A model generated the notes under the pieces. That model was not told where the DNA came from. It saw only the letters and a program-made list of their open reading frames with translations, and did not search any database. Position numbers and translations under genes: made by a program. 62,151 nt of DNA, taken from contig JABMOT010000158.1 in assembly GCA_013202385.1 (NCBI GenBank), positions 1-62,151 on the forward strand, written 5' to 3'. Positions 6,518 through 39,702 of the stretch are shown piece by piece. How positions within the stretch are numbered: the first letter of the stretch is position 1; every line of letters begins with the position of its first letter. Source of the stretch: Fidelibacterota bacterium. Lineage in GTDB: Bacteria; Fidelibacterota; UBA8477; JABMPR01.

Positions 6518-6520
6518 AAC

Positions 6521-21692: not shown

Positions 21693-22784
21693 TTAAAATT
21701 TCCATTTGGGTTTACGATTCTCGTAAAAAACACCCCAATGCTTTTCCATCACGCTGGGATCTGATTGAAGACCACCGCCTTTCCAGGGCTCATCAAAAGC
21801 TTCAAAAAGGAAAAGGGTGACCTGATTCTCGTTGGTCCAGGAGTTGAGCTGAGTAACAAATGTTTCCTGGGCTTTTATACTAACTTCCGTTTTAACAAGG
21901 GCGCCCTCTTCCCCGGGACCCATTTTTTCGGGATTGTAAAGCGTCGCCCAGCCGGTTTCAGACAATATTATCTCTTTGTCTGGATGAAAAGTCTGAGCCG
22001 CTTTATAAACACTGTCTATCCAGGTCATTGCGTTCTCAAGGGTTTTACCATTCCATAGGGGATACGCGTGCAAAGCCATGAAATCAATCTCTGCAGCAAC
22101 TAATATGCTGTGTCCCTTATTCCAGAAATTATAGTCATCGGCTGTAGTCACAGGCTGTTTGGTAAGATTTCTAACTGCACGAATGTAACGAATAAGATTC
22201 TTCATTTCCATGTGGTGCCAGGACCAATCTACCTGGGATTCATTCCCAACATTGATGGCAATGACTTCATCAGGGAAACGATTGGCTAATTCAATCCCCT
22301 TCGTCACCTGTTTCAGATTCTCCACTTCTCGATCTGGATTCTTTGTTTCGTTCTCCAGCCAGATACCCAGCATCACGCGGATGGGGAGTTGATTTTCATG
22401 AATAACCTTTAGGACACGTTCACTATCATCATCGGATCCGTAAACGCGGATAAGGTTCCACTTTGGAGACAGAATATTGAGGTCCTCAAGAATTTCCGCT
22501 TCGCTGGGACCCTTAACGCCAGGGGCTTGGCCCTCTCGATAACATCCATAGGAAATACCATTGCCAATCCATTTATTATTCAGATAGGGAGTGAATATTC
22601 GTTCAACGAAAGGAGATTCTTTTGCAAAAATAGTTGAATCGGATTCCATGCTGCTGAGAAAGTCTGCAGCCCTTGGAAAAGGTGCTGGCGCACTTTTATT
22701 CAACATAAGTTTCTTGGTTTGACAGGATATCAGGCAGCATGTGACCACCATCAATATCCCAATAGTTGAACTCAGTCTAGTCAT
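21693..22784 (-). CDS. GH17 beta-1,3-glucanase / transglycosylase-type lipoprotein
   Basis: 363 aa. Lipobox LISC. Bacterial GH17 pattern: GISYGCYREGQAPG, IRVYGSDD, acid/base INVGNES, nucleophile SETGWAT, FLFEAFDEPWKG. Confidence 0.8.
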   Translation of the reverse strand: MTRLSSTIGILMVVTCCLISCQTKKLMLNKSAPAPFPRAADFLSSMESDSTIFAKESPFVERIFTPYLNNKWIGNGISYGCYREGQAPGVKGPSEAEILEDLNILSPKWNLIRVYGSDDDSERVLKVIHENQLPIRVMLGIWLENETKNPDREVENLKQVTKGIELANRFPDEVIAINVGNESQVDWSWHHMEMKNLIRYIRAVRNLTKQPVTTADDYNFWNKGHSILVAAEIDFMALHAYPLWNGKTLENAMTWIDSVYKAAQTFHPDKEIILSETGWATLYNPEKMGPGEEGALVKTEVSIKAQETFVTQLNSWTNENQVTLFLFEAFDEPWKGGGLQSDPSVMEKHWGVFYENRKPKWKF

Positions 22785-22831: not shown

Positions 22832-25800
22832 TCAAGCCAGTGTGACATCAATACGACTCACCTGACGCTGGCGAATCTCAGTGGCCAGCTTACCGATTAT
22901 GGAATTTCCCTCGAACTGATGTGTGTTCCCATCATTATCCAATATTTTCCATTGTTTTGGAATCACCTTCTCAGAACCATAGGTATTTTTCATGGCAGGA
23001 TTGTGATAGGTGACCATTATTTCACCCAGGAACATGAAGCTAAACGTATTGGCAGGGATGGATAAAGGTAAAGAATCATTTATGCCTGCCTCTTCAACAC
23101 GTTGTGTCTTTGTGGTGAATAGCCAGCCGGGGAGCACGGGCTGCAATTGGAACTCCAGTTCACTCTGATTATTTAGCACAAAGGGTTTCGGACCCATGGC
23201 CATATGCATCAAAATTTGAATGAATTCTGCTGTAGCACCACTTAAGCGCGCCACAAAGCCAGTTCCGTGCAAACTTTTATCGGGATTGGCACTACTTACA
23301 ATAAAGGAGGAGTTCTCCAGGATGCTGCGGCCGTAGATCTCTGGTTTCTGGAACGGAATAAATACCTTTTTAAATTCATCAAAGAAGATGTCGTTCAGAC
23401 CATTTCTCAGAATCTCGTACATGTATTTGTATTCCATATGGAGCCAGATGGATTCGTTCTCAAACCAACCCGGGGAAAACACCCTTGCTCGTCCAATCTC
23501 CATGGGTTCGTCATCGAGAACGGCGTTGACCTTGTACATCCCAAGCTTTGTGTCATAAAGATCGCTCTTCCGAATGTCTTCTACCAACTTACGCGCAATA
23601 GACGTCTCAGGCTGGCAACGCAGAAAATGAACTGGACCTTCCAGAAAATGGGGGAGATGATGAATCCTGAACGATTTTACCCGAAAACAGCTCAGACCCT
23701 TGGAATTGGTCTTGGTGGAGAGAGATCCATCAGCCTCAGTGACCTGAATTAGTTCATGCTCCACAACCTCATGGTTGAAATAGGTTGATGGAATCTTGCC
23801 TGCCATATCCCAGGCCATGTTGATCCCAGTTTCAAGTTTAGACAAACAGGCTTCCAAATAAGTCTTAAGCGCAGAAATGCTCACACGGGTTTCGACACCA
23901 GCAATACCCAGAATGATCTGACTCCGAAATTTTTCCTTGGCTGAATTAGCCTGATCCCAGAAGCTGAAGGGTTCAGGGTCATTCTCAAGAATTTCAGCCA
24001 GCGTTGAAATGAACTCGGCCAACTCTTCAAAAATTTCCAAATCAGCTACGCTGTGGCCATGTTCATTGATAGCCTCCAGAAGGAAAAGTATATTTCGTTT
24101 GATTTCCATGGTTTCACTGAGGCTGGAACCCATGATAGCCGATAACCCATTGAGAGCGTCATACCAGTTGGGTTTATCCGATTCCATCTCCACACCGATT
24201 CCAGAGGGGTCCAGGGAAGCCATTTTGTTGGTGATAAGACTGAGCATTTTGGTAATAAGGAAGGTATGATAGACTACTCCGCTACCATACTGAGTCCGGA
24301 CAGAATTCCGATCCTGTTGGCGCGTGTGAATCAACGCTTCTTTTTGCTTGTCAAGATAGACGGCTTCCAATTGCATGGTTTTCCCATCCCAGATGACATA
24401 CTTCTCATCCCGTGGGTGCACCAGATAGGGACTGTCGTGAAATGTGAAGTTCTGCTTCTCAAAAAGGATGTATCCAATTTTCTCGGGATAGATGGCCAGA
24501 TAATTCTCCAGCAGATCCAAATTATAGGTCCAATGATCAGACCAGTAGCCTTCACCGTGGTCAGTGTCATGGATTTTGTGACAGACGGCCAGCAGATCAC
24601 CTAAGAATGCTTCAGCACCGGTTGAAAGTTCAACACCATTCTGATGCAGGTAGACCAGGAGTTCTCCAGGAGTCCTGGATTCCTTCAAGAAATCTAGCAC
24701 GGAGTCAGCGCGATCCTGGGGCACATGGTCTTTTAAGACCTGCGAGGCGGCCGCGGAATCCTTGACTATATACCGCAGTTCTTTGATAACCAGGGGGTTG
24801 AATCCATCGAGCTGGATCAAATTGTAGAAATGTTCCAGATTACCAGATTTTACATCAGGGTTAAAAAGCAGATCAGAGCGACGATTTTGATTGACGTCCC
24901 GGTAGGCACCGTTTCCCTGGGAAAAATTGGTGGGTGTGATGCGGTAGTCATTATAATCTCGCTCGAGATCACCGTGTCTACGTGAGAATAAATGTAAAAC
25001 TGAATCGGATTTTTTGCCTTTGAGTGTATAGGGAAAACCACCGCGCAGCACATTATCCAGAAAGTTTTGGCGAACATAGAGATCCAGAACTGGTTCGCTG
25101 CTGATGATGAGATTTTTGGCAGTCAGCTCATCGATCATTGTATGACTCACCTGCTTTTTATTTTTCAGGTATTCTGCTTTGCTTATGGTCGGCATTAGCT
25201 GATTCAATGTTTCTTTTGAATCAATATGACCGATTATTGAGGTCAGTGTATAAGAATCCCCAGCAGCTAACTCGGTTTTAAAAAGACTCATGGCAGAGGG
25301 AAGTCTATTTTCAAACACTTGCCCCTCCAGTAGGGTGTCAAAATCCGACTCTAAAAAATTGGCAGGGTGACTGTAATCGTTGTGGGGACCAAAGATCCGC
25401 TGCGGGTCGACAATAGGTTGAAGCAGGCGGGTTCCTTCAGAGGTAGCCTCGAGACCGATATAGAAATTGCCCTTGATAATACGCACAACTTCAGGTCGGT
25501 CTGCAGGTTCTACTTTGCCTTTGAAAAGCGGAGCGGAGTGATCATAGTTTGTGACTTCTACAAAAGCCTCTGTCAGGCGACGAAGATGTTTCAATGCAAA
25601 ATTGTTAAGTCCGTGGGGAATGATAAGTGGGAGACCATCCAGACCTTCAAAAGCGATCTCCTGAGTACCGATGTTCTCAATGTGAAGCGTTCTAATCAGC
25701 CCTGCATATTGATCTTCGGGTACCGTATGATATTCAACCTGGAACTTAAGACCGAGGGTTTCATTCACTTCTTCAAGAGTGAGGTGGGAGGAGGATACGA

Positions 25801-26161
25801 ACATGCGCTGGGTTTTTTGCATGGCCTCATCCTGGTAATGATCCTGAAAAGGTTCATAGTACTTAATTTTAGAATCGTTAGGAAATTTGATAAAGGTCCT
25901 GAATCCCTGGCTGGAAACGAGCTGGTAAGCCCAGTTCGCCGGTAGGAATTCCATGATTGGATTGTCTTTGTCCTGGATTCCCATACTGCAAATACCCTGG
26001 CCACGGTTTACAAAAAATACCCACATGGGGATACCAGTCTTGCCGGCAATTCCTGGGAAAAAGCTGGAAAAGGGCTTTGCCGCATTATAATTCTCAATGA
26101 TGAACTCACCTGAATTATTCAATTCAAAACTGGTTTTGGATCTGCTATTCAAAGGTTTCAC
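22832..26161 (-). CDS. Large cytoplasmic GH94-clan-like protein, candidate beta-1,3-glucan (laminari-oligosaccharide) phosphorylase (GH149/GH161-type)
   Basis: 1109 aa with no signal peptide. Its size and N-terminus (FSSFFPGIAGKTGIPMWVFFVNRGQGICSMG) resemble what I recall of bacterial proteins annotated as cellobiose-phosphorylase-like or beta-1,3-glucan phosphorylase. It sits between GH30 and GH17. The family assignment was not verified by any search. Confidence 0.45.
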   Translation of the reverse strand: MKPLNSRSKTSFELNNSGEFIIENYNAAKPFSSFFPGIAGKTGIPMWVFFVNRGQGICSMGIQDKDNPIMEFLPANWAYQLVSSQGFRTFIKFPNDSKIKYYEPFQDHYQDEAMQKTQRMFVSSSHLTLEEVNETLGLKFQVEYHTVPEDQYAGLIRTLHIENIGTQEIAFEGLDGLPLIIPHGLNNFALKHLRRLTEAFVEVTNYDHSAPLFKGKVEPADRPEVVRIIKGNFYIGLEATSEGTRLLQPIVDPQRIFGPHNDYSHPANFLESDFDTLLEGQVFENRLPSAMSLFKTELAAGDSYTLTSIIGHIDSKETLNQLMPTISKAEYLKNKKQVSHTMIDELTAKNLIISSEPVLDLYVRQNFLDNVLRGGFPYTLKGKKSDSVLHLFSRRHGDLERDYNDYRITPTNFSQGNGAYRDVNQNRRSDLLFNPDVKSGNLEHFYNLIQLDGFNPLVIKELRYIVKDSAAASQVLKDHVPQDRADSVLDFLKESRTPGELLVYLHQNGVELSTGAEAFLGDLLAVCHKIHDTDHGEGYWSDHWTYNLDLLENYLAIYPEKIGYILFEKQNFTFHDSPYLVHPRDEKYVIWDGKTMQLEAVYLDKQKEALIHTRQQDRNSVRTQYGSGVVYHTFLITKMLSLITNKMASLDPSGIGVEMESDKPNWYDALNGLSAIMGSSLSETMEIKRNILFLLEAINEHGHSVADLEIFEELAEFISTLAEILENDPEPFSFWDQANSAKEKFRSQIILGIAGVETRVSISALKTYLEACLSKLETGINMAWDMAGKIPSTYFNHEVVEHELIQVTEADGSLSTKTNSKGLSCFRVKSFRIHHLPHFLEGPVHFLRCQPETSIARKLVEDIRKSDLYDTKLGMYKVNAVLDDEPMEIGRARVFSPGWFENESIWLHMEYKYMYEILRNGLNDIFFDEFKKVFIPFQKPEIYGRSILENSSFIVSSANPDKSLHGTGFVARLSGATAEFIQILMHMAMGPKPFVLNNQSELEFQLQPVLPGWLFTTKTQRVEEAGINDSLPLSIPANTFSFMFLGEIMVTYHNPAMKNTYGSEKVIPKQWKILDNDGNTHQFEGNSIIGKLATEIRQRQVSRIDVTLA

Positions 26162-26199: not shown

Positions 26200-27897
26200 T
26201 TAAAGCTGAACGCGAACGGTTTGGACGGCGTTTGCCGGGATCATGATCTCAGCAAATTCAGTCGCGATCTGGAGTTTGTAGGTGATGGCTGCAGTGCTGG
26301 TGTTAAGAACCTGAACGCTCACATACCCATCGCTGTTAATTGTGGCGCAGCTATGCAAAGCATCTGGATCCAAAGCTAAAATATTTTTGCTGGTTTGAAG
26401 GGCTTTATCGCCGGGGCGGATGCTTCTGCTAAACTGAGATAGCACATCAAAAATTGGGGTGTAGTAAACATCCTGGGATTGTGTATCAATCATAATGGGT
26501 GCCCCACAGAAGTTATCCGCATGGTTTGGACCTCCCTGTTGATCCAGCACAATATTCCAATCTACCCAGCCAGTCACCCAATGATCCAGGCTAACGATGA
26601 TATTGCGGGCATAGCGGTGGACGGGTGTGTACATAGGGTGATCAGCTGCCAATGGTCCGGCCCATGGCACGGCGTAAGCCCAATCCGTAGCTGTGGGGCT
26701 CCACCAGAACGCGTCATTCTTGAACCAGTCTTTTTCGGTTCGTCCTTCTGGATCTGTACATTCAGCCGGTGCCGGCTTGCCCAGATCATCAATACACCCC
26801 TCGGTGTGAACGAAGGCGTACTCAGGGAATTTGGCATGGACTGAATCAAATACGTCTTCATAGACCTTGTTTGTACTTTCATACCAGTGTACAGCAGTTC
26901 CGTATACATATTTTGCCGCTGCTTCGTCTCCAAGAATCACATCTGTCCAGTGCTCGATTCCGTCCCGATTTTGGTCATAAATGAGCAATTTTGTATTTGC
27001 AAAGGCGCTTTGAGTGAGACCTGGTCCCAAATGCTGTTTGAGAAAATTACTCTGGGATTCAGGAGAAAAATTCATGCTCTCCCACTGACCATTATTGCCA
27101 TGGGGTTCATTAACAGGAGTAAGTCCCCAGATCGTGACACCTTCGGCTTTATAGGCAGTTAAATATTTTAAAATGTAATCAGAATAGGTCGAAACATACT
27201 CTGGCTTCAGGGAACCACCTGTACCCTGCCAGTTGTTTTCGGCCGCCATGCCCACATACCAATCCTCAATATCTTTCATCCAGGCAGGGGCTGTCCAGGC
27301 TGAACCAATGATGCGCAATTCCTGATCGGCTTGCTTACTTTTGATACGAAGAGCCTCCTGGATCATGGGGAGCAGATCGTAGGCTGTGTCTTTTATTCCC
27401 GGGTATTTTTCTGGGTCAAAGCCAGCCTGGTCTGGTGCGATGCTGAACGATTCAAGCGCAGTGTCACCTGCTATATCAGCATAGGAATATTTACCTTCTA
27501 CGCAAAAATCGCAGGCACCAATATGAGTGCGGGTCAATGAGAAATTAGCACCGGAAGCACTGTATATGCGTTTCATGACCTCATGTCGTTTCGCTGAATC
27601 CAGGTGAGCCAGAACAAAGGCAGATGATTCTGTAAAAGAGCTGCCAATTCCATCGATGGTTTGTTTTACCTGGTCTGGAAAAACGGAGATCACCACGCCT
27701 TCAGCAGTCCCAGGTTTAAATGCCACGTTAGCCTGGCTTTCCTGTTTCGCTCCTGCAGCGGATGTGAGAATAATTTCAGATGTCATTTTGGCATCGGTTT
27801 TCAAAATAGCATGGGTGCCACATCCCAGCATGGAGAAGGTCATGAGCAAAAGACCAGAACGGCTGATAATATTGGTTGGTTTCATGTAATTCCTCAT
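26200..27897 (-). CDS. GH30 beta-1,6-glucanase / glucosylceramidase-family lipoprotein
   Basis: 565 aa. Lipobox MLGCG. GH30 pattern: IDGIGSSFTESSA, FSLTRTHIGACDF, SAWTAPAWMK, acid/base LTPVNEP, nucleophile region FVHTEGC. Confidence 0.8.
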   Translation of the reverse strand: MRNYMKPTNIISRSGLLLMTFSMLGCGTHAILKTDAKMTSEIILTSAAGAKQESQANVAFKPGTAEGVVISVFPDQVKQTIDGIGSSFTESSAFVLAHLDSAKRHEVMKRIYSASGANFSLTRTHIGACDFCVEGKYSYADIAGDTALESFSIAPDQAGFDPEKYPGIKDTAYDLLPMIQEALRIKSKQADQELRIIGSAWTAPAWMKDIEDWYVGMAAENNWQGTGGSLKPEYVSTYSDYILKYLTAYKAEGVTIWGLTPVNEPHGNNGQWESMNFSPESQSNFLKQHLGPGLTQSAFANTKLLIYDQNRDGIEHWTDVILGDEAAAKYVYGTAVHWYESTNKVYEDVFDSVHAKFPEYAFVHTEGCIDDLGKPAPAECTDPEGRTEKDWFKNDAFWWSPTATDWAYAVPWAGPLAADHPMYTPVHRYARNIIVSLDHWVTGWVDWNIVLDQQGGPNHADNFCGAPIMIDTQSQDVYYTPIFDVLSQFSRSIRPGDKALQTSKNILALDPDALHSCATINSDGYVSVQVLNTSTAAITYKLQIATEFAEIMIPANAVQTVRVQL

Positions 27898-27905: not shown

Positions 27906-29873
27906 TTAGGCTTGCCCACTGTCGGCGGCAGCAACTTTGCCCCGTCTGTTTTCAAGCTCGGCCCGGATTTCATTGGCTTTCTTCTCAGTAATTGTATAGG
28001 TCGCAATGATCCAGAGTGCAATGGCTGAGGTTACGATAGGAATCCCAACATCGAATACCCGAATCCAGAGCAAGGTTGACTCAGATTGTCCAGCTCCCAG
28101 AGCCACATCAAAACCGGAGACTTTAAGCAATATTCCAGTCAGCAATCCAGCCAGTGCCATCCCTACTTTGACCATCCACCAGTAAATGGCTCCAAAAACA
28201 CCTTCGCGGCGTTGATGGGTTTCCAGTTCGTCATAATCACATACATCGGAGATCATGGATCCCATGAGGGTAAACAGAGAGCCCGTTCCAAATGCCACAA
28301 AGGGTGCCGCGAAAAGCAGCCAATAAGGATATTCAGGATTGTAACCGATCCACTTGATGCCATAGCCGATGATGGAGAGGGAAATTGTCAACATAAAGGT
28401 TTTTCGCTTGCCCAATTTGGTTGCTATCCATCCCGTAAATGGGATGACAGCCAGAGTAGCAATTGATGTGAGCATTCCGAACCAGCCCATGAGTTTGCCG
28501 GCGTCACCATCATTTCCGTTAAATAAATAATAGATCATGATGTATATGGAGAAAGACATCCCCAACTGGAAACCGTTGAATACCAGGAAAGTGGATGCGC
28601 AGAGCTTTACGAAGGGCTTATTTCTAAAAGTAATGGCGATGCCCTTGAAAAACCCGCCCATATTTTCCCAGAAACTTTTTCCAGCACTATCCGCCGGAGT
28701 CAGAATCGGTCGCTCCTTGAGAAAGATTGCTGGAATGATTCCAAATACAGCGACAATGACTCCAACGACAATGGCCAGGCTGCGAGCACCATGGACAGTA
28801 TCTCGAAATAGGCTGCTTGCCATGATGGCATAGAACCAGGGGACACCCAGCCAGGCGAGCTGACCCACGGTGTTGGCAAAGGCATGGAGTCGGGTCCGCT
28901 CATGGTAATCCGGTGTCATCTCATAGCCAAAAGCCACAAAGGGTGTTGCAAAAACAGTATAAGCCAGAAAAAAGAGAATTGACATGGCCATGAAATAGCG
29001 GAAATAGAAAATGAAGAAGCGTTCACTCTTTCTCAGTTTAAGCGAATGAATGGTTGCAACTCCAGCCCCCTCAAAGCCAGTGAGTTGCAAAGAAATACTC
29101 TTCATGGCCTGCATATCCAGGTGCTTATTACCGTTTTGATTGCCGGACCATGGACTTTGCACCAGGTCAGCTATGTTGAATTTATATAAATTGCCTTTGC
29201 CATCTACTGATTGATCCAGTGTAAGATCGATATAAAAGGACTCACCGTCTGAGCCTGCTTCCGATACTTCAGCCTCATTGAAAAACACCTGGAAACCATC
29301 AAGCTCAGGCAGAGCAACATTTAGTTCAACCTGAGGGAAATCATCCAGGTTTGTGGCCAGCGATACGGTTTTTTCCAGCGCTAATAATTCTGGTCCAAAG
29401 AAGACGAAATCAGCACCAATTTCCTGCTTTGAATCATAATTCAGAACGGCTCCACCGGCATCATTGAAACGGGTCCCCGTCAGACTCGATGATAGGGTCT
29501 GGTGCTGGGCGATAGGGGTTTTGGCCAGAAAATCAATATATCCAGAGGGCAATTGCCACATGAGAGCGAAAATTATTCCAGCCAGGATTGCGCCGGCGAA
29601 GATGAAGGGTCTGCGGCGGCCCCAACGGGTGCGGGTATTGTCAGAGATATAGCCCAGCATCGGGTCTGAGATGGCGTCAAAGATCCGGGGGATTGCTCCA
29701 ATTAATCCAACCCAGAGTACATCCATGCCCAGCCCAAGATTGAGGATCACAACCATGGCAGGAAGCGCAGCCGCCTGGAGGTTGTTCACCAGCATTCCCA
29801 CGGCGTAAGCCGATTTTTGCTTCAGGGAAATGCGATCTTCCGGGGCAGTTTTGTAATGTTGTGATTCACTCAT
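27906..29873 (-). CDS. GPH-family MFS sugar:cation symporter carrying a ~175-aa inserted soluble domain
   Basis: 655 aa. The GPH signature DPMLGYISDNTRTRWGRRRPF sits between TM2 and TM3. After TM3 there is a non-hydrophobic stretch (aa ~108-284) before the next TM (FFIFYFRYFMAMSILFFLAYTVF). The rest is a normal 12-TM GPH layout. Confidence 0.8.
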   Translation of the reverse strand: MSESQHYKTAPEDRISLKQKSAYAVGMLVNNLQAAALPAMVVILNLGLGMDVLWVGLIGAIPRIFDAISDPMLGYISDNTRTRWGRRRPFIFAGAILAGIIFALMWQLPSGYIDFLAKTPIAQHQTLSSSLTGTRFNDAGGAVLNYDSKQEIGADFVFFGPELLALEKTVSLATNLDDFPQVELNVALPELDGFQVFFNEAEVSEAGSDGESFYIDLTLDQSVDGKGNLYKFNIADLVQSPWSGNQNGNKHLDMQAMKSISLQLTGFEGAGVATIHSLKLRKSERFFIFYFRYFMAMSILFFLAYTVFATPFVAFGYEMTPDYHERTRLHAFANTVGQLAWLGVPWFYAIMASSLFRDTVHGARSLAIVVGVIVAVFGIIPAIFLKERPILTPADSAGKSFWENMGGFFKGIAITFRNKPFVKLCASTFLVFNGFQLGMSFSIYIMIYYLFNGNDGDAGKLMGWFGMLTSIATLAVIPFTGWIATKLGKRKTFMLTISLSIIGYGIKWIGYNPEYPYWLLFAAPFVAFGTGSLFTLMGSMISDVCDYDELETHQRREGVFGAIYWWMVKVGMALAGLLTGILLKVSGFDVALGAGQSESTLLWIRVFDVGIPIVTSAIALWIIATYTITEKKANEIRAELENRRGKVAAADSGQA

Positions 29874-29936: not shown

Positions 29937-31220
29937 TCATAGTTGGATTTCTGAAAAATGCTTATCAATATGACTGCGTTTAACTCCTGGTTTATAAGGG
30001 TTTAAAGCGTGGATCTGCTTGAGGGTAAAATAGGCCATCCGCGGCGATAATTGATAGAGACCCTGATCATCACATGCCCCTTTTGCGCAAATTCCAAACC
30101 ATTCTTCATTCATATTATTCTGACCTGGGCTAAAATCTTCTGAATATCCGCCATTAGCCCAGGAGGCGTGGCGATCATGGGTATCAAGATGTGAGTCCAG
30201 GCCGAATTTCCACCAGCCATCGGAAAATTGAAAGGTATAGCCACCAATAGCATTACCTGTATTGCCTTTTCCACTGGATTGCTCATAAATCTCTCTCCAG
30301 TTTCCCAACAGGTATTTAGCTTGTGCTTTTTGGTCCTCCACCAGGGTCCTTGAATTAAAAGCGTCAGCTCCGAATTCAGTAAACAAGACCGGGATTCCCA
30401 ATTTTTGTTCAACCTGTTCAAATAGATCGCCGAAGGAGACTCCGCGATAGACATTACAGCCAAAAATATCGAGATTCTCGATCTCCTCTGCAATGATGTC
30501 AATATATTGAAGATCACCATTAGCAATGGCTACAGGATGTTGATCGTCTAGTGTATGAATGGCATTGATTGCTTCATTTAATAGTGAATACAGCTGATGC
30601 GCTTGAACGACCTGGGGTTTAGCCTGGTCAGGCAGGTTCTGGGATTCAGCAGAATTCCAGTGCAGACCATAATTATTTTCGTTACCGAGAAGCCATATCA
30701 AGATTCCAGGAACATCCTTGTATTGACTAACCATTGTTTCCACATCGGCAATAATAGCCTTTCGCGTCTGCGGATCTCCGTAGTCAACACTGGCAACCCA
30801 ATTACTGTCTACCAGAATGCCATAGCGTCCAAAGGGATGGTTAAGTGTGGTGAATAATCCGAAGTGCTCATAAATATATTTCACCCAGCGGGGAGGAATG
30901 CTGTTGTACTGACGGATTGTGTTGGCGCCCATTTCTTTGAGTAGACCCAGCTCTCGATCCAGAGCTGCTATAATTAACTCATCTGGTTGAGCCCAAAAAT
31001 TGTAGGCGTAATTTGTACCGATGGGGAAATAGTCCCAATTCATCCCAAAAATCATAAAATCTTCGCCAGCCACCTGGAGCTTTTGACCGTCATGATTTGA
31101 AATCACTTTCACCATCACTGATTTAGGGTCCCTCGCACAACCAATAATCGCAATACAGGAAGCTAACACCAGGACCTTAAAAGAAATGCTGCTACCGTGC
31201 AGTTGAAGTTTTTGAATCAT
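29937..31220 (-). CDS. Clan GH-A (beta/alpha)8 glycoside hydrolase lipoprotein (GH2-TIM-like / possibly GH158-type beta-1,3-glucanase)
   Basis: 427 aa. Lipobox IIGC. Motifs: GANTIRQY, acid/base WLLGNENN, nucleophile-like LFTEFGADAF. The family-level call is tentative. Confidence 0.5.
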   Translation of the reverse strand: MIQKLQLHGSSISFKVLVLASCIAIIGCARDPKSVMVKVISNHDGQKLQVAGEDFMIFGMNWDYFPIGTNYAYNFWAQPDELIIAALDRELGLLKEMGANTIRQYNSIPPRWVKYIYEHFGLFTTLNHPFGRYGILVDSNWVASVDYGDPQTRKAIIADVETMVSQYKDVPGILIWLLGNENNYGLHWNSAESQNLPDQAKPQVVQAHQLYSLLNEAINAIHTLDDQHPVAIANGDLQYIDIIAEEIENLDIFGCNVYRGVSFGDLFEQVEQKLGIPVLFTEFGADAFNSRTLVEDQKAQAKYLLGNWREIYEQSSGKGNTGNAIGGYTFQFSDGWWKFGLDSHLDTHDRHASWANGGYSEDFSPGQNNMNEEWFGICAKGACDDQGLYQLSPRMAYFTLKQIHALNPYKPGVKRSHIDKHFSEIQL

Positions 31221-31251: not shown

Positions 31252-33099
31252 TTAATAGCTTAAACCGTAACCCACAGGGAACAGCGGATTATAATCGGAA
31301 TCGCCTGAATTGATGGGGATTTGGTCCATGGATGCTGGCCATGAGACTGATAATTTGCCGGACGGCGCGTAATCCCCGAAGATGATATCTGCAATGCCAT
31401 TGCCCTCGGTGCCAGGTAGCCAGGCAGCCAGGAATGCATCTGATTGTTCAAGAACCTCATTAATAATCAGGGGACGACCGGATAAAAGCACAACGATCAT
31501 AGGCGCACCTGAGGATGTTACCGTATTGATCACTCCAAGATCAGCTTCAGACAGCTCCAGATTCTCACGATCACCATGCATTTCTGCGTATGGGTCTTCA
31601 CCTACAACAACGATAACTGCATCGGCTCCTGCGCTGGCGCTACCATCAACTGATATTACGAGCTCGGTATTTTCAGAAACCAATCCTTGAACACCCTCAT
31701 AAATAGATGTCCCCAAAGTGATATCCCCGTGACCGCCCTGCCACGAAATGCTCCAACCACCGCATTGCATGCCAACATTATCTGCACCCCGACCGGCGAG
31801 CACAATTTTGGCTGCATTTTTGGAAAGGGGGAGTGCCGCATTATTATTTTTTAGCATGACCATTGATTCACGGACAGCCTGACGGGCAAGCGTCCGATGA
31901 TCTGCTGATCCCACTGTTGGCGTCAAAGCTCGGTCATTGTGGTAGGGAAGCTCCAGCAGTCCCATTTTCTGCTTAATAGTGAGGATGCGTGTTACAGCAT
32001 CATCAATGCGGGACATTTCAATTGAGCCTTCGTTCACGGATTCAGTCAGGGTCTCTATAAATTCACGATAGCCCCGGCCAGCCTTACGGGTATCGCCAGG
32101 AACCATGACCATGTCAATTCCAGCATTAATGCTGGTGATAATATCGTTTTTAAAATTTCCGGGAATTTCGTCAATCCCTTGCCAATCGCTAACGATGAAT
32201 CCATCAAAACCCAACTCACCCTTCAAAAGATCGGTGAGTAAATAGTGATGGCCGTGCAATTTGACACCGTTCCAGCTGTTGTAGGATGCCATGATAGTCC
32301 CAGTGCCAGAGGCGATGGCGGCTATGTATTGGGGGAGATGGAGAGCCCGCAATTCTGCTTCTGAAATTTGTGCATCACCGCGATCAATCATACCATTTTC
32401 GCCGGTGGACCAGGTCGGGGCGCCATCACCGATATAGTGCTTGGTGCATGCCAGAATCGCATCATTGGCGTCAAGCGAACTTCCTTGAAATCCTTCCACC
32501 AGAGCAGCACCGAGTTGAGCAATCAAGACTGGATCCTCTCCAAAGGATTCATAAGCCCGACCCCAACGCTCATCGCGTGAATTTGCAACACAGGGGGCAA
32601 AGGTCCAATTTATGCCAGTCCCACGAACTTCTTCAGCAGTAAGTCTGCCCAATTGGCGAACCAGATCAGAGTTCCCAGTTGCTCCCAAACCAATATTGTG
32701 TGGTAGAATGGTGGCGCCGATAACATTGTTATGGCCATGAACAGCGTCAATGCCATAGAGGAGGGGAATTCCGAGACGAGTATGCGCCGCCTGAGCTTGA
32801 AATCCGTCTACCATATCTGCCCAGGCCGCTGGTTCATTTACGGCCGGTGATGAACCCCCACCGCTGAGGATGGAACCCAAAAAATAATTTTTAATATCAT
32901 CTTGATGAATGAGAAAATCGCGACCTACCTGGGTCATCTGCCCGACTTTTTCAGCAAGACTCATCATCTGGACAATACTATCAGCGCTTTTACCAGCTAT
33001 AGACTCGTGGCGGACAATCGGCTCGGTCGTGTTACAGCTACCAAGCAGCAATCCTGTTAAAGGAAGCAGGCAGGCTTTTAATAGTTTAGCTTTGGTCAA
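31252..33099 (-). CDS. GH3 beta-glucosidase lipoprotein
   Basis: 615 aa. TTG start with a GAGGAGAG RBS. Lipobox LLGSC. GH3 motifs: KVGQMTQV, GIDAVHGHN, RDERWGRAYESFGEDP, nucleophile GFIVSDWQG. Confidence 0.9.
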   Translation of the reverse strand: MTKAKLLKACLLPLTGLLLGSCNTTEPIVRHESIAGKSADSIVQMMSLAEKVGQMTQVGRDFLIHQDDIKNYFLGSILSGGGSSPAVNEPAAWADMVDGFQAQAAHTRLGIPLLYGIDAVHGHNNVIGATILPHNIGLGATGNSDLVRQLGRLTAEEVRGTGINWTFAPCVANSRDERWGRAYESFGEDPVLIAQLGAALVEGFQGSSLDANDAILACTKHYIGDGAPTWSTGENGMIDRGDAQISEAELRALHLPQYIAAIASGTGTIMASYNSWNGVKLHGHHYLLTDLLKGELGFDGFIVSDWQGIDEIPGNFKNDIITSINAGIDMVMVPGDTRKAGRGYREFIETLTESVNEGSIEMSRIDDAVTRILTIKQKMGLLELPYHNDRALTPTVGSADHRTLARQAVRESMVMLKNNNAALPLSKNAAKIVLAGRGADNVGMQCGGWSISWQGGHGDITLGTSIYEGVQGLVSENTELVISVDGSASAGADAVIVVVGEDPYAEMHGDRENLELSEADLGVINTVTSSGAPMIVVLLSGRPLIINEVLEQSDAFLAAWLPGTEGNGIADIIFGDYAPSGKLSVSWPASMDQIPINSGDSDYNPLFPVGYGLSY

Positions 33100-33484: not shown

Positions 33485-34846
33485 ATGAATGACTATCAGG
33501 AATACGAATTCGGAAAGACTCTCACGCACGGTCGCTCGATTTCCACGAGTCTTCCTTTCCTGTTTACAATTGGTGCATTGATCTTCTTTATTTCTTTCCT
33601 GATCTCCTCTTTTCCATTGGGTCGCAACCCCTTGAATACCGATGGAATTCAACGGGTCTATTTTGCTGATAATATTGGACCTGGCCATGCAAAAATAATA
33701 AGCCAATTTAATGAGCGCCATAAAGGAGAGATCGAAGTAATCGCTATCGATCTACCCTTTTCAAAATTTAATACTAATCAGCGTAAGGAGTTGATTACCC
33801 GTAATTTGAGAAGTCGTAGCAGTAGGATTGACGTGTTCTCTGTTGACTTAATCTGGGTACCCCGGTTTACCAAATGGGCAGAACCTCTGGCCCCTTACTT
33901 TTCACCCCAATTCCTAAAAAATATTGTTGAGAAGCCACTGGAAACCTGTTATGTGGATGGAGCCCTATACGCCATACCGTTATACACCGATATAGGGGCG
34001 CTGTATTATCGGGAAGACATGATCTTGGCATTGCCGGGAGGTGCGGAAATAAATGAGCGGATCAAACAGTCTATCAATTGGGAGGAACTGCTGAGGATTG
34101 GTGAAGAATATTTCCCTGACCAGGCACTCTATATACCTCAGGCTGCAGCCTATGAGGGTTTAATCTGTAATTTCAATGAAATTCTAGGTCAATCGCTGCA
34201 GGACGAGGAAACGGGTGAGCTTATAGACTTGCTTGACCCCAATGTTATTGAGAGGGTCAGCTTTATGCGTGATTTGATTGAGAAGAAAATTGCGCCAATT
34301 GCAAGTTTAAGAATGGCAGAAGATGAGTGTATTCGCTATGCCCTAAGCAATGGTATACCCTTCGTTAGGGGCTGGCCAACGGTCAATAATGATAGCGACG
34401 CTCGTTTTGATTCTATTCTATTTAAAAAGTTGGCAATTGCACCCCTACCTCATTTTGAAGGCGAGCGGTCAACTCCAGTATTTGGAGGCTGGAATATGAT
34501 GCTCTCCAAACACTCACCCGTTAAGGATGCCGCAATTGAATTTATCCAATTTGCCGCTTCCTATGAGGGACAGAAAATCTTCTTCGAATACGACGGATTG
34601 CTTCCCATCCAGCAGCAATTTTATCGCGGGTCAGCTGAAGATCCTCGCCATGCACGCTTGCAGGTAATTGAGAAGATGATGGCAAATGGACTTCATCGCC
34701 CCATGCTTCATCAGTACACCTTGATTTCAGATATTCTTTCTGCCAGGCTGCACCAGATTATTGCTGGAGAAGTCGAAGTGGAAGCAGGGCTGAAACAGGC
34801 GAAGCAAGAAATTGATGCTATCTTGGATCGAGAGCATAATTCTTGA
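33485..34846 (+). CDS. Membrane-anchored family-1 solute-binding protein (sensor partner)
   Basis: 453 aa. One N-terminal TM (LPFLFTIGALIFFISFLISSF), then an SBP-like domain (IEVIAIDLPFSKF..., YAIPLYTDIGALYYRED, FGGWNMMLSK). Its stop codon overlaps the TTG start of the kinase gene. Confidence 0.65.
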   Translation: MNDYQEYEFGKTLTHGRSISTSLPFLFTIGALIFFISFLISSFPLGRNPLNTDGIQRVYFADNIGPGHAKIISQFNERHKGEIEVIAIDLPFSKFNTNQRKELITRNLRSRSSRIDVFSVDLIWVPRFTKWAEPLAPYFSPQFLKNIVEKPLETCYVDGALYAIPLYTDIGALYYREDMILALPGGAEINERIKQSINWEELLRIGEEYFPDQALYIPQAAAYEGLICNFNEILGQSLQDEETGELIDLLDPNVIERVSFMRDLIEKKIAPIASLRMAEDECIRYALSNGIPFVRGWPTVNNDSDARFDSILFKKLAIAPLPHFEGERSTPVFGGWNMMLSKHSPVKDAAIEFIQFAASYEGQKIFFEYDGLLPIQQQFYRGSAEDPRHARLQVIEKMMANGLHRPMLHQYTLISDILSARLHQIIAGEVEVEAGLKQAKQEIDAILDREHNS

Positions 34847-36321
34847 AAAAACTGAGCAAATATGAGAGTTATCATTTCGAGATTCAGCATGTTCTGGTCC
34901 TCTTCATTGTGGTTGTCGTTTTCCAGTCAGCACTCTCTTTCATCAACAGTCAATCAACCCATAAAATATTTAATCAGGCCATGGATTATTATCGCCGCGA
35001 TTCCGCTGAGCGTGTCGCTGATCTGACGACCACTGCACTTGAATTATTGATTGAGCAAGGCCGGATGGATATTTCTGGTCAAGAGAGCCACAAAGACGCC
35101 GCCGTTCTGTCACTGAACAAACTTCTGAGCCAGCAAACGTTACAAAGAAATATTGATGAAGTTTACCTGTTGGTTTTAAAGGGAGATAGTGTATTAGCCC
35201 TTCAAGATGGGGAGGCTATTTACGATCTATATTTTGGTTCTTATACAGGTAGCACAGTCAGCGAAAAAGCAACTGCGAAAAATGCCGTAGCTTATTACAA
35301 TGACAACAAATCTAGTCTTTTGGACGAAGAGCAAATTGTGAGTTCCTTGGAGGGGAACAACACCTTCCATGTATTGGTGCCATATTATGATTCTGGTGAA
35401 ATTGCCGGTGCCACCTATATGCGTATTACACCTGATGTTGCTGGATTTTTGTCCCTGATTGCCTCAGCATATAATCAGTCTGGTATTCTTTTTACAGGTC
35501 TTATCCTGATAGGATTTATGGCCATGTTTTTCATCTATTCCTATACAGCCCAGGAAAGAGATGTTGTTCAACGACAATTGTTTGATCAAAGCTCAAAACA
35601 GCTCCGTGAGCAGGTTGAACACCAGAAAGAATCACTCTTTACTAAACGTATTTATCATACTCATCACAAGGCTGAAAAGGTTATGGGCTTCATCAAAGAA
35701 GATTTGAGGAGTCTGAGTGATGCCAATCTGGATGAAACCAGAGACCGGGTAACCAAGTATGCAAACTTTGTTTCCCGGGTTATTTATGATATGAAGTCCT
35801 ATGATCCTCCACTCCACGTCATTCGCAATCCGATATTTAAAACAGATATAAATGGGGTTATTCAATTCCTGGTGAAAAATATCTTTCAGCGGGTCTACAG
35901 TGTGAGCAAATCTGCAGCAGTCACTGTGAAGTTGGATTTAGCCGAAGATATTCCTGTGCTGCATATCAATGAATATGTCATCTGGGAAATTATTGAACCT
36001 CTGATACAAAATGCCATTGAACACAATGTGGATCAAGATCTCATCATTGAGTTGAAAACCGAATATGATCCTGAATCAAAGCGGCTTCAAATCGAAATTG
36101 GTGATGATGGCAAAGGCTTTCTGGAAGAGCTGTTAGTCAGTGACGAGCTTGGAGTTAAAGCGTTGTTTAAGGAATCAATCAGTACCAAAGAAAGTGGCCA
36201 GAATTCAGGATACGGGTGTTATTTAGCCCGCGAAATAAGTCGTCGCTGTGGCTGGCAGCTGGAAGCCTACAATAAAGCTGAAGGAGGCGCCTGTTTTGTG
36301 ATTCAGGCGACCATAGGATAA
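34843..36321 (+). CDS. Sensor histidine kinase (two TM segments, periplasmic sensor domain, GHKL ATPase)
   Basis: 492 aa. TM1 VLVLFIVVVVFQSALSFI, TM2 ILFTGLILIGFMAMFFIYSY. N-box EPLIQNAIEHN, G1 IGDDGKGF, G2 GYGCYLAREI. The H-box region (IYHTHHKAEKVMGFIKEDL) is atypical. Confidence 0.75.
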   Translation: MKKLSKYESYHFEIQHVLVLFIVVVVFQSALSFINSQSTHKIFNQAMDYYRRDSAERVADLTTTALELLIEQGRMDISGQESHKDAAVLSLNKLLSQQTLQRNIDEVYLLVLKGDSVLALQDGEAIYDLYFGSYTGSTVSEKATAKNAVAYYNDNKSSLLDEEQIVSSLEGNNTFHVLVPYYDSGEIAGATYMRITPDVAGFLSLIASAYNQSGILFTGLILIGFMAMFFIYSYTAQERDVVQRQLFDQSSKQLREQVEHQKESLFTKRIYHTHHKAEKVMGFIKEDLRSLSDANLDETRDRVTKYANFVSRVIYDMKSYDPPLHVIRNPIFKTDINGVIQFLVKNIFQRVYSVSKSAAVTVKLDLAEDIPVLHINEYVIWEIIEPLIQNAIEHNVDQDLIIELKTEYDPESKRLQIEIGDDGKGFLEELLVSDELGVKALFKESISTKESGQNSGYGCYLAREISRRCGWQLEAYNKAEGGACFVIQATIG

Positions 36322-36324
36322 AAA

Positions 36325-37770
36325 ATGGAACAAGATCAAATTAAAGTGCTCCTTATCGAGGATGAAGAATATGATGTTCGTCGGATTAAAAATACCATCA
36401 ATCCTTACCGAGAGCGCATTCAGATAGAGGAAATCGTCTCAACAGGCGAAGATGCCCTCCGAGTATTGGAGAAGAACGGATCCTTTGATGTAGCCATTCT
36501 TGACTATCAAATATCCGGTGGTCTGTACGGTGAAAGACTGATCAAACGCATCAAAATAATTGACCCAAGTATTCAAGTTATTGTCATCACCAAAATGACA
36601 GTGAACCAAACCGATCTTCACTTTGCAAATCAGATGATCGAGAGCGGCGCTTATTGGTTTGGGACCAAATATCCATCCGATATTGAAGATTTTATTTATC
36701 AGCCCACAGATTTCATTTTAACGATTCTAAATGCTGCAGAGAAGAAACGCCTGGAGCTTGAAAAAATGAAATCCCAAAACCGACTTGATAAAAAAATTGA
36801 TCGGATCGTCCAGGAGCGACCCATGTTGGGAAATTCCCCAAGCATCCTGAAGGTTCGGGAACACATCTCGAAATACGCCGCCACCCATGCGAATGTGCTC
36901 ATCACAGGTGAATCTGGCTCTGGGAAGGAGCTTATCGCTCGAAGCATCCATTATCAGAGTGCCCGCCGTTATGACAATTTCGTCACCGTTAACTGCGCTG
37001 CAATTCCAGATGAACTCATTGAAAGCGAACTATTTGGATTTGTCAAGGGGGCTTTCACTGGTGCCAGTGAGGACAAATTAGGACTTTTTGAACAGGCCCA
37101 TCATGGCACCATTTTTCTCGATGAAATTTCGGAGTTACCCTATCAGGCTCAGGCAAAACTGCTCCGCGTTTTGGAAACAGGGGAGCTGGATAAAATTGGA
37201 CGCAAAAAGAGCTATAATGTAGATGTCAGAGTTATTTCAGCCACCAATAAAGACATCAAAGAATTGATGAAACAGAATCGTTTCAGGGAGGATCTTTATT
37301 ATCGTCTTAATATCTTGAATATACAAGCACCTCCCCTCAAAGAGCGGGCTGAGGACATACGCATACTAATTGATTATTTTGTTGGGCACCACTGCCGGGA
37401 TCTCAGCATTACTTTACCATCAATTAGCGATGAGGCCTGGTCGATCCTGCAACATTTTGAATGGCCAGGTAACGTGCGTCAATTGAAAAATGTCACTCAG
37501 AGACTGGTCATTCTCAGTAATGATACGATTAGTAAAGCGACAGTGGATTTGGCCTTAGATGTTCAAAGTCAAGGTTCAGGTGCTGCCCTGACCAATCCCG
37601 TTTTTTCGAGCGAAAATATATTGCCACTGAGAGATGTCGAGCAGAGTTTCAGAAAGCAGTATTTTGAATTCGTTCGGCTTCATAGCCATACGGATACTGA
37701 AGCGGCTGGGAAGCTCGGTTTGGCTCCACCAAATTTCCACCGCATGTGCAAGGAGTTGGGTCTGAAATAG
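36325..37770 (+). CDS. Sigma-54-dependent response regulator (REC + AAA+ EBP + Fis-type HTH)
   Basis: 481 aa. REC: VLLIEDEE...DVAILDYQ. Walker A GESGSGKE, exact GAFTGA motif, ELFGF, Walker B FLDEI. C-terminal HTH: AAGKLGLAPPNFHRMCKELGL. Confidence 0.9.
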   Translation: MEQDQIKVLLIEDEEYDVRRIKNTINPYRERIQIEEIVSTGEDALRVLEKNGSFDVAILDYQISGGLYGERLIKRIKIIDPSIQVIVITKMTVNQTDLHFANQMIESGAYWFGTKYPSDIEDFIYQPTDFILTILNAAEKKRLELEKMKSQNRLDKKIDRIVQERPMLGNSPSILKVREHISKYAATHANVLITGESGSGKELIARSIHYQSARRYDNFVTVNCAAIPDELIESELFGFVKGAFTGASEDKLGLFEQAHHGTIFLDEISELPYQAQAKLLRVLETGELDKIGRKKSYNVDVRVISATNKDIKELMKQNRFREDLYYRLNILNIQAPPLKERAEDIRILIDYFVGHHCRDLSITLPSISDEAWSILQHFEWPGNVRQLKNVTQRLVILSNDTISKATVDLALDVQSQGSGAALTNPVFSSENILPLRDVEQSFRKQYFEFVRLHSHTDTEAAGKLGLAPPNFHRMCKELGLK

Positions 37771-38094: not shown

Positions 38095-39702
38095 GTGAGC
38101 GGTCTGGATTACTCAGTTATCGTAATCTATTTCCTCATTGTGCTGGGGATCGGAATCTATTTTTCCCGGCGCACGTCAGACAGTACTGAGTATTTCCTGG
38201 CTGGCCGCAATGTTGGTTGGATAGCGATTGGTGCTTCATTGTTCGCTTCCAACATTTCTAGCGAACATTTCATCGATCTTGCGGGAACAGGCTCCAGTAG
38301 TGGCTTGGCTGTAGGACATTTTGAATGGCTTGCCGCTTTCATGGTTTTATTTCTGGGCTGGATTTTTGTACCCTTCTATTTGAAATCTGGTGTTTTCACC
38401 ATGCCAGAATTTCTAGAACGGCGTTATGGTCGCGCCAGCCGCATGTATTTGACCTCAGTATCAATCATTGCCTATGTCATTACAAAAATTTCGGTCACTT
38501 TATTTGCAGGTGGACTGCTCCTGAACAAGATTTTGGGCTGGGATATGATGACTTCCGCCGTTGTACTCATCATCGTTACCGGTATTTACACAATTGCCGG
38601 TGGTCTTAGTGCAGTCATCTATACAGAATTGGTGCAGACCTTTATCCTTATAGGGGGTGCAGTGGCATTGACCCTCCTTGGTTTGAATGAAGTAGGTGGT
38701 TTTTCAGGCTTACAGGCCAAACTGCCACCAGAATTCTTTGATATGTTTAAAGCCATGGATCATCCGGATTTCCCCTGGACTGGAATCATATTTGGGGCAC
38801 CCATATTGGGTGTCTGGTACTGGTGTACGGATCAGTTTATCGTTCAACGGGTGTTGAGTGCAAAAAATATTAATCATGCTCGCTCAGGGGCCATCCTTGC
38901 AGGTTTCCTGAAGATATTACCCGTATTCATACTGGTATTGCCCGGTTTGATTGCCGCCGCATTATTTGGAACAACGGGGGATGAGGCCTACCCAACCCTG
39001 GTGACCAGTTATTTACTCCCTTCAGGTGTTAAGGGCATTGTGATTGCCAGTTTGCTAGCTGCGCTCATGTCATCATTGGCCAGTGTATTCAATAGTACTT
39101 CAACATTATTTACGATAGATTTTTATAAAAATTTCCGACCAGATTCAACTGAAGTTGAACTGGTTCTCGTCGGTCGCCTTGCAACGACAGTCATGGTGGT
39201 ATTGGGTGTGCTTTCTGTTCCGTTGATCACCATGCTCAGCAGTCAGCTGTTTGTCTATCTACAAAGTGTCCAGGCCTACATTAGTCCTCCCATTGCAGCA
39301 GTATTCATCTTGGGAATATTCTGGGACAGGGCCAATTCTCAGGGCGCCATTTCAGCATTGGGTGCAGGGGCAGTCCTGGGAGCATTACGGTTTGTTTTGG
39401 AGATCTTGGTCAAGAGCGGCACATCACTAGGTAGCTTTGAATGGTTTGCCACCATGAATTTTCTCCATTTTGCAGTGTTTTTATTCATAATTTCAGTTGG
39501 GGTCGTGGTGGTCGTCAGTTTGGCAACTTCAGTGCCCGATCGCAGGCAAATTTCTGGACTTACCCTGGCCACAGCATCGGAGTTGCAGACAGATTTAAGT
39601 AGAAGGATGGATGTTCAGGATTCAAAATGGAATCAGATCAACATTCTAGCATCTATTGTGCTGGTTGTGGCAATACTGGCACTCTGGATTCGATTCGCAT
39701 GA
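38095..39702 (+). CDS. Sodium:solute symporter (SSF, SGLT-like sugar transporter)
   Basis: 535 aa with a GTG start. Motif YFLAGRNVGWIAIGASLFASNISSEHFIDLAG. About 14 TM segments. Confidence 0.85.
   Translation: MSGLDYSVIVIYFLIVLGIGIYFSRRTSDSTEYFLAGRNVGWIAIGASLFASNISSEHFIDLAGTGSSSGLAVGHFEWLAAFMVLFLGWIFVPFYLKSGVFTMPEFLERRYGRASRMYLTSVSIIAYVITKISVTLFAGGLLLNKILGWDMMTSAVVLIIVTGIYTIAGGLSAVIYTELVQTFILIGGAVALTLLGLNEVGGFSGLQAKLPPEFFDMFKAMDHPDFPWTGIIFGAPILGVWYWCTDQFIVQRVLSAKNINHARSGAILAGFLKILPVFILVLPGLIAAALFGTTGDEAYPTLVTSYLLPSGVKGIVIASLLAALMSSLASVFNSTSTLFTIDFYKNFRPDSTEVELVLVGRLATTVMVVLGVLSVPLITMLSSQLFVYLQSVQAYISPPIAAVFILGIFWDRANSQGAISALGAGAVLGALRFVLEILVKSGTSLGSFEWFATMNFLHFAVFLFIISVGVVVVVSLATSVPDRRQISGLTLATASELQTDLSRRMDVQDSKWNQINILASIVLVVAILALWIRFA

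Follow-up and report, generated by a model that had tools for sequence, protein, structure and literature searches.

A carbohydrate-binding-module-like domain inserted into a periplasmic loop of a GPH-family symporter from a laminarin locus

In current models of glycan use, capture takes place at the outer membrane through SusD-like and surface glycan-binding proteins, and the inner-membrane transporter of the major facilitator superfamily (MFS) is a plain permease. What, then, does a large soluble domain do within such a permease? The question is raised by a gene in a stretch of DNA of 62,151 nucleotides from a Fidelibacterota bacterium (contig JABMOT010000158.1, assembly GCA_013202385.1), hereafter the window. 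An original prediction, made from the sequence alone, had described this gene as encoding a 655-aa sugar symporter of the glycoside-pentoside-hexuronide (GPH)/MFS type with a soluble domain of about 175 aa in an extracytoplasmic loop, possibly a carbohydrate-binding-like module that captures oligosaccharides. The present analysis identified a 177-aa beta-sandwich domain between transmembrane (TM) helices 3 and 4 of a transporter encoded in a laminarin locus, and suggests that it may hold glycans at the transporter entrance. Laminarin is among the largest organic carbon fluxes in the ocean, and the closest named relatives of the transporter are from Candidatus Marinimicrobia/Neomarinimicrobiota; Marinimicrobia are abundant and uncultivated.

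Position and topology of the insert

The gene is a single open reading frame (ORF) of 655 aa with an ATG start (27906..29873, minus strand, as are all features of the gene given below), and was assigned to the GPH family of cation:sugar symporters on the basis of Pfam, NCBIfam, and AlphaFold2 results. The Pfam profile MFS_2 (PF13347) gave a strong but bipartite match (5.2e-64; 216.8 bits, cut-off 27): residues ~15-109 corresponded to profile positions ~1-100 and residues 290-630 to positions 96-427, which together cover positions ~1-427 and thus the 12-TM core. The NCBIfam model TIGR00792 (gph) matched at 3.5e-54, and its match was likewise split by the insert, which lowered the score to 184.1 bits against a trusted cut-off of 231.35. 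These split matches indicate ~180 extra residues at the TM3-TM4 junction. The AlphaFold2 model from the full-length alignment (pLDDT 80.6, pTM 0.77) consisted of TM helices and a single all-beta domain, and its helices together with the distribution of lysine and arginine (K/R) residues gave the GPH layout of twelve TM helices, both termini inside, and a basic TM2-TM3 loop. The N-terminus and TM1-TM3 (residues 1-107; 29553..29873), with helices at 17-48, 52-79, and 88-105, were delimited from AlphaFold2 and the alignment with MelB and MFSD2A, and TM4-TM12 with the cytoplasmic C-terminus (residues 285-655 plus stop; 27906..29021) from Pfam, AlphaFold2, and the K/R distribution.

Two aspartates of TM2, D66 and D70 (FDAISDP; 29664..29678), were invariant in 101 homologues and aligned with the D..D pair of MFSD2A (WDAVTDP). 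Judged from the alignment they are a probable cation-coupling site, their counterparts in MelB and MFSD2A forming the Na+/H+ site. The cytoplasmic TM2-TM3 loop contained five K/R and the motif RTRWGRRRP (residues 81-89; 29607..29633), of which G85, R86, R87, R88, and P89 were invariant in the same homologues; the RxGRRRP motif anticipated for this loop is therefore present as RWGRRRP at residues 83-89.

The insert comprises residues 108-284 (177 aa; 29022..29552), exactly where the original prediction had put it and close to the length expected. It is flanked by hydrophobic segments at 87-107 (FIFAGAILAGIIFALMW) and 285-317 (FFIFYFRYFMAMSILFF...), and in close orthologues the same site is occupied by only about six residues (MWQLPPGHSQMFYFW). 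Its limits and nature are indicated by the split profile matches, this absence from close orthologues, AlphaFold2, Foldseek, and the ratio of nonsynonymous to synonymous substitution rates (dN/dS).

K/R residues were clustered in the N-terminus, loops 2-3, 6-7, 8-9, and 10-11, and the C-terminus, with none in loops 1-2, 7-8, 9-10, and 11-12. The nearest solved structures to the core were MFSD2A and MelB, residues 10-110 aligning with MFSD2A 29-131 and residues 47-106 with MelB 35-95 (TM2-loop-TM3). Both termini of MelB are cytoplasmic, so its loop 3-4 is periplasmic. Agreement with the positive-inside rule and the alignment of the flanks to MelB and MFSD2A place the loop that carries the insert in the periplasm, as had been proposed, and not in the cytoplasm. 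The insert itself is acidic (11 K/R vs 24 D/E) and without cysteine.

Over 100 homologues, the insert had a mean identity of 49%, compared with 81% in the rest of the protein, and against a 93%-identical relative its dN/dS was 0.127 and that of the core 0.016. The insert is under purifying selection, about eightfold freer than the membrane part. Its signature consists of the elements YGP, FPQVE.N, NEA, GES, GNQ.GN..LD, and KLRK. At the membrane interface, K282 was invariant and K279 nearly invariant among the 101 homologues.

Fold and family of the insert

The impression of a beta-sandwich gained from the sequence was borne out by structure prediction. AlphaFold2 modeled the insert alone as a confident all-beta domain with 12 beta-strands (pLDDT 90.5, pTM 0.88), and in the full-length model the insert was also all-beta, with strands between 112 and 281 (pLDDT 80-88). 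The secondary-structure elements assigned by DSSP in these models delimit a folded beta-sandwich core at residues 112-281 (29031..29540). The last strand (270-281) enters TM4, the helix of which starts at 284, through a link of two residues.

Foldseek searches of the Protein Data Bank (PDB) returned carbohydrate-binding modules (CBMs) among the nearest structures, in agreement with the carbohydrate-binding-like fold suggested earlier. The matches included the CBM-like N-terminal domain of a glycoside hydrolase (GH) family 50 agarase (6xj9; E 6.2e-6, TM-score 0.46), CBM11 of C. thermocellum, including complexes with a beta-glucan tetrasaccharide (6r31, 6r3m, 1v0a; 1e-5 to 3e-5, TM-score 0.51-0.55), the complex I assembly factor NDUFAF1/CIA30 (7zkp; 3e-5, TM-score 0.60), and GH16 lichenases and legume lectins (several entries; 2e-4 and weaker, with lower TM-scores). 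The top matches had a probability of 1.0, and the fold is the beta-sandwich/jelly-roll of CBM11. None of the Foldseek matches listed was labeled as one of the laminarin-binding CBM families of Christiangramia.

At the sequence level, identity to the CBM11, agarase-CBM, and CIA30 structural matches was 9-13%, and when the insert was used to search the PDB, as a sequence or as a profile, the matches were marginal only. The Pfam profile CBM_11 did not match the insert of the window, and relatives matched below threshold (0.002 and 3.4e-4; gathering score of 27 bits unreached). For CIA30 (PF08547) there were 12 sub-threshold matches (best E 0.004, gathering score unreached), counted over two overlapping insert alignments (7/39 and 5/25 sequences), none of them from the insert of the window. 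Agarase_CBM (PF17992) matched at only 0.11-0.13 in Pfam, and the insert profile reached the 6xj9 domain in the PDB at E 0.015. On the strength of these fold and sequence comparisons, we assign the insert to the galactose-binding-like beta-sandwich superfamily, as a family so far unclassified, and not to CBM11.

An exhaustive phmmer search with the insert alone (1.84 billion representatives) gave 29 clusters. Besides GPH transporters, the domain was found at the C-terminus of GH42-like, GH113-like, and Glyco_hydro_cc-like TIM-barrel proteins and in one cyclase-containing protein; a position C-terminal to the catalytic domain is the usual one for a CBM. A protein that appeared to be a stand-alone domain of 142 aa (P0151) was really a fragment truncated by a contig end. 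The GH-appended relatives and the insert have in common the signature FGP, TDLDGY, DEAG, GDDGES, WGNQ.G..D, and IHS..L.R. In the alignment of both groups, E200 (NEA) and E211 (GES) (29241..29276) were invariant family-wide, with a loop of variable length between them. The same alignment showed a conserved GNQNGNxxLD loop (residues 244-253; 29115..29144), of which G248 was invariant and Q246 and D253 nearly so. The N-terminal segment of the insert (PSGYIDIL.K.P..QHQ) was kept in the transporter forms and missing from the GH-appended relatives.

Occurrence, gain, and loss of the insert

The prevalence of the insert was taken from a search for the best 120 protein clusters, phmmer, and a scan of GTDB species; word-indexed searches with the insert only gave 1 and 7 short proteins. 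All of the 120 best clusters (65-100% identity, many sources, 635-921 aa) had the insert in frame, about 105 single-insert forms aligning over 96-100% of the query and fifteen longer forms over 77-83%. The insert-bearing form was present in 14 species-level genomes of three phyla. The 93%-identical gene was found on 20 contigs with identical synteny, contigs of three independent metagenomes spanned both junctions without indels, and one metatranscriptome contig, in which DNA carry-over is possible, spanned the insert-TM4 junction. The cluster, contig, and metagenome data refute an assembly or frameshift artefact. Neither this outcome nor a disordered insert, both named beforehand as fatal to the original prediction, was encountered.

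In the GTDB scan (one genome per species, full-length alignment as query), at least 588 relatives of the transporter were detected, and their 79 best loci were examined. Insert-bearing genes among these 79 occurred in Neomarinimicrobiota, Cloacimonadota, and Lentisphaeria, and insert-less forms of ~475 aa in Verrucomicrobiota, Planctomycetota (Phycisphaerae, Pirellulales), Kiritimatiellia, Omnitrophota, and Bacteroidota. The TM3-TM4 loop of the insert-less forms reads MWQLP(P/E)GHSQ.FYFW. Three apparent long forms of ~2400 nt (L052, L061, and L078) proved to be ordinary 481-aa proteins.

The core of the window's transporter was 81% identical to those of insert-less Verrucomicrobiota and Anaerohalosphaeraceae, 80% to those of insert-bearing Lentisphaeria, and 77.5% to those of insert-bearing Cloacimonadales. 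In addition, homologues of 800-920 aa (P0027, P0042, P0048, P0050, and P0066) had the domain twice in tandem within the TM3-TM4 loop. The core of one of them (P0066) was 90.2% identical to that of an insert-less Verrucomicrobiota transporter (L012, 8001-9440), which implies, from this sequence comparison, that a segment of ~416 aa was gained or lost very recently. The existence of near-identical cores with and without the insert shows that closely related cores have acquired, lost, or exchanged the domain, and therefore that the core does not need it and the module is accessory. The neighbor-joining tree is crude and without support values; the pairwise identities suffice for this claim.

In the tandem forms, the first copy was closer to the GH-appended relatives (AGDDGES, YGNQNGKKQLD), and some second copies had an extra segment of ~40 aa. 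Separately, one low-depth metatranscriptome contig (run X18) skips 282 nt (94 codons, in frame) in the C-terminal half of the transporter (28249-28532); as its shorter side has only 22 letters, it is probably an assembly chimera.

The laminarin locus

The transporter gene lies in a minus-strand run in the order GH3, GH158-like clan GH-A protein, GPH transporter, GH30, 1109-aa ORF, GH17, and a type IX secretion system (T9SS) protein. The GH3 lipoprotein (31252..33099), an exo-beta-glucosidase, matched PF00933 (8e-74) and PF01915 (1.8e-46). The clan GH-A lipoprotein of 427 aa directly upstream of the transporter gene (29937..31220) gave weak matches to GH2_C (PF02836, 6.7e-7) and to a GH158 structure (PDB 9oro, E 0.003). 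The GH30 lipoprotein directly downstream (26200..27897; PF02055, 3.9e-62; lipobox LGC) is by its sequence a probable debranching beta-1,6-glucosidase. The 1109-aa ORF (22832..26161) had no Pfam match and was identified as a GH161 beta-1,3-glucan phosphorylase from the PDB entries 9qqk (GH161A, 6.6e-218) and 9h8v (~1e-217), and the GH17 lipoprotein (21693..22784; PF00332, 2.8e-7) as a beta-1,3-glucanase. Lipoprotein signals were found in the GH3, GH30, GH17, GH5, and 427-aa proteins. The GH161 ORF has no signal peptide, which places it in the cytoplasm.

With GH17, GH30, GH3, two GH16, a TonB-dependent receptor (43064-45979), an inner-membrane transporter, and GH161, the genes make up a laminarin locus, and the transporter belongs to an oligosaccharide pathway, as its MFS_2 family and its GH30, GH17, and GH161 neighbors indicate and as had been proposed. 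Elsewhere the window encodes GH5 with CBM6, GH2, an SSF symporter, GH144-like enzymes, and an ATP-binding cassette (ABC) sugar system. In nearly all of the phyla covered, whether the insert was there or not, the GPH, GH30, and GH17 genes were adjacent. The arrangement agrees with that of laminarin loci in Flavobacteriia, in which GH30 debranches the glucan and GH17 cleaves its backbone (PMC6246565). The characterized GH161 enzyme PapP requires beta-1,3 acceptors whose degree of polymerization is 2 or more (PMC6484121); with a cytoplasmic GH161, this requirement means that oligomers must cross the inner membrane.

Homologues of GH161 with 37% identity were also located near insert-less transporters in Planctomycetota. 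In Balneola (L057, 9450-11320), two ORFs that lack obvious signal peptides come after an insert-less transporter, and the second of them matches the GH17 of the window (33% identity); this pair may be a cytoplasmic hydrolytic route replacing GH161 phosphorolysis.

Function of the insert

We propose that the insert captures glycans in the periplasm as a module tethered to a laminari-oligosaccharide:cation symporter, a reading that we consider to have about an even chance of being right and in which we infer glycan binding, the ligand, and the hand-off. A 177-residue beta-sandwich similar to CBM11, CIA30, and agarase CBM has been inserted into the short periplasmic TM3-TM4 hairpin of an inner-membrane importer. 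The near-absent, near-rigid linker to TM4 in the AlphaFold2 model would set the domain on the periplasmic face of the N-terminal half, beside the vestibule through which the substrate enters; in MelB, TM4 carries substrate and cation ligands. According to this proposal, lipoprotein hydrolases (GH17, GH30, GH158-like) would release laminari-oligosaccharides in the periplasm, and the domain would bind them. Oligomers held at the transporter mouth would raise the local substrate concentration and favor import over complete hydrolysis by GH3, and the imported oligomers would be phosphorolysed in the cytoplasm by GH161. An accessory, ligand-facing domain is suggested because it fits the fold, the CBM-like placement, the beta-glucan context, the tandem copies, the fast evolution, and the dispensability of the insert. 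CBMs are often duplicated in tandem.

Several observations weigh against glycan capture. The Foldseek TM-scores are moderate (0.45-0.60), the insert of the window alone had no Pfam or NCBIfam match, and all family-level matches were below curated cut-offs. CIA30, which is not known to be a lectin, has the same fold. GH-appended relatives have a Trp or Tyr before GNQ, a feature that the transporter inserts do not conserve. The SSF symporter and the ABC system are also present in the locus, and the substrate of the transporter was assigned by gene adjacency only. Finally, cores with 80-90% identity occur without the insert, so that any benefit would be auxiliary.

The main rival to glycan capture is partner docking, in which the insert would be a platform for a protein, e.g., the GH30, GH17, or GH3 lipoprotein or an outer-membrane component, that couples cleavage to import, in the manner of AmpG1 with Slt or of the MalF P2 loop with MalE. 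A precedent exists in AmpG1, an MFS permease whose periplasmic domain binds the lytic transglycosylase Slt (PMC13507758), and the fusion of a laminarin-locus MFS transporter to GH17 in Formosa (PMC6246565) shows selection for enzyme-transporter proximity in this pathway. CIA30, among the closest folds, is a protein-binding assembly factor, and GH30 is always the adjacent gene. However, a synteny comparison across phyla found no gene co-occurring only with insert-bearing transporters; GH30, GH17, and GH158-like genes flank insert-less orthologues equally often, and elsewhere the domain's relatives are joined to GH catalytic domains as ordinary CBMs are. We regard docking as unlikely, with perhaps half the weight of glycan capture.

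Less probable still is a structural or regulatory lid that gates the vestibule, stabilizes a conformation via the TM4 link, or oligomerizes, with no specific ligand. The last strand running straight into TM4, the conserved K279 and K282 at the membrane interface, and the N-terminal segment found only in transporter forms, which suggests a transporter-specific contact, would agree with such a role. The insert evolves much faster than the core, as seen in both identity and dN/dS, and is present, absent, or doubled among near-identical cores, which fits an accessory ligand-facing module better than an integral gate.

A small catalytic domain, in which E200 and E211 on neighboring jelly-roll strands would form a glycosidase or transglycosylase pair trimming oligosaccharides at the transporter mouth, is very improbable. 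It could account for the two glutamates that are invariant across the whole domain family, GH16 beta-glucanases were among the Foldseek matches (2e-4 to 1e-3), and the Formosa MFS-GH17 protein is an enzyme-transporter fusion in the same pathway. Nevertheless, the core has ~150-170 aa vs 185-245 aa for the GH16-type jelly-roll hydrolases among these matches, the GH16 ExDxxE motif is absent, the best structural matches are non-catalytic modules, and in other proteins the domain comes after a distinct, catalytic TIM barrel; binding of Ca2+ or of sugar hydroxyls would be an equally good role for the acidic residues. A fusion of two genes by misassembly or frameshift has practically no chance of being right, as TM3 and TM4 belong to the two halves of one and the same MFS domain, the same in-frame architecture recurs in every one of the best clusters and in the genomes of three phyla, and nothing was found in its favor.

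If glycan capture is correct, a glycan-binding module tethered to the permease would mean that glycans are also captured at the inner membrane, and could explain how oligomers are kept for energy-saving GH161 phosphorolysis instead of full hydrolysis. A bolder and more doubtful proposal, which we put forward tentatively, is that the insert is a true substrate-receptor domain that makes the MFS symporter a binding-domain-assisted, high-affinity oligosaccharide importer. Within the MFS, the transporter would then parallel the ABC importers that have substrate-binding domains fused to them, or the tripartite TRAP and TTT systems. The domain would be a plug-in cassette gained, lost, or duplicated to tune the affinity for laminarin fragments in dilute seawater, as well as a new CBM family and the first known embedded in a transporter. 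The near-identical cores with zero, one, and two copies also constitute a natural experiment, through which the effect of an extracytoplasmic domain on the MFS cycle is measurable.

Comparison with known systems

The transporter shares the 12-TM MFS_2 core, the cytoplasmic GRRRP loop, and the TM2 Asp pair with GPH symporters (TC 2.A.2; MelB, XylP, GusB), and differs from them in having a folded domain of 177 aa at a site that in relatives is a loop of about six residues; MelB and MFSD2A have no such domain. Like other MFS transporters of marine laminarin loci it is encoded next to GH30 and GH17, and its core shares 80-81% identity with insert-less orthologues. CBM11 (C. thermocellum Lic26A-Cel5E), the GH50 Agarase_CBM, and CIA30/NDUFAF1 are of the same beta-sandwich fold class, whereas the insert has its own signature and sits within a membrane protein instead of being appended to an enzyme.

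Large extracytoplasmic domains are found in other transporters. The P2 loop of MalF in the maltose ABC importer (TM3-TM4, ~180 aa) binds MalE, and the extracellular domain of PepT1/PepT2 binds trypsin. As in the present case, these are folded domains between two TM helices of a nutrient importer, with a presumed part in bringing a partner or substrate to the entrance, but they belong to other transporter superfamilies or positions and bind proteins, not glycans. AmpG1 of Acinetobacter baumannii (PMC13507758), a bacterial MFS protein, likewise imports glycan fragments and has a periplasmic domain restricted to its lineage; this domain binds the enzyme Slt, and the family, the substrate, and presumably the fold differ.

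A parallel in the same pathway is the MFS transporter fused to GH17B in a laminarin locus of Formosa (Flavobacteriia), for which periplasmic processing coupled with uptake was proposed (Unfried et al. 2018, PMC6246565). Its MFS part is probably of the same family as the transporter of the window, and both importers carry a soluble carbohydrate-active module. In Formosa this module is a catalytic GH17 at the C-terminus, whereas here it is a non-catalytic-looking, CBM-like insert between TM3 and TM4, with GH17 encoded by a separate gene.

The full-text literature searched contained no description of a GPH/MFS sugar importer with an inserted CBM-like domain, and databases name the insert-bearing proteins only 'MFS transporter' or 'GPH family symporter'. 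The architecture had been predicted to be unusual; it is undescribed in that literature, but common in databases and preceded by the Formosa fusion. The transporter family, the fold superfamily, and the fusion of soluble modules to laminarin-locus MFS transporters were thus already known, and the combination and the insertion site appear to be undescribed and widespread.

Other features of the window

Divergent from the run beside GH3 (33485-37770, plus strand) are genes for a membrane-anchored solute-binding-like protein, a histidine kinase, and a sigma-54 response regulator, a trio that is likely the sensor of the locus and was kept in the locus of the 93% relative. The SSF sodium:solute symporter gene (38095-39702, plus strand) overlaps by 76 nt with a T9SS-tailed ORF of 1109 aa (39627-42956, plus strand), the true start of which is probably further downstream than 39627. 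Directly after the TonB-dependent receptor there is an ORF of 1181 aa without a Pfam match (45981-49526, plus strand), which may be a surface glycan-binding protein replacing SusD, followed by a PorV-like gene (49523-50620, plus strand).

The region 232-7336 (plus strand) contains two GH144-like ('Glycoamylase', PF10091) proteins, one of them with CBM30 and a T9SS tail, and then an ABC sugar importer (solute-binding protein and two permeases), and may be a separate beta-1,2-glucan module. Additionally, two CotH kinase-like proteins are encoded within the glycan locus (9957-12146, plus strand; 15642-19202, minus strand), one of which combines Lamin-tail and chitobiase-like domains with a T9SS sorting tail. 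A VTC-domain protein adjoins a DUF4956 protein among glycoside hydrolase genes at 57571-59033 (plus strand).

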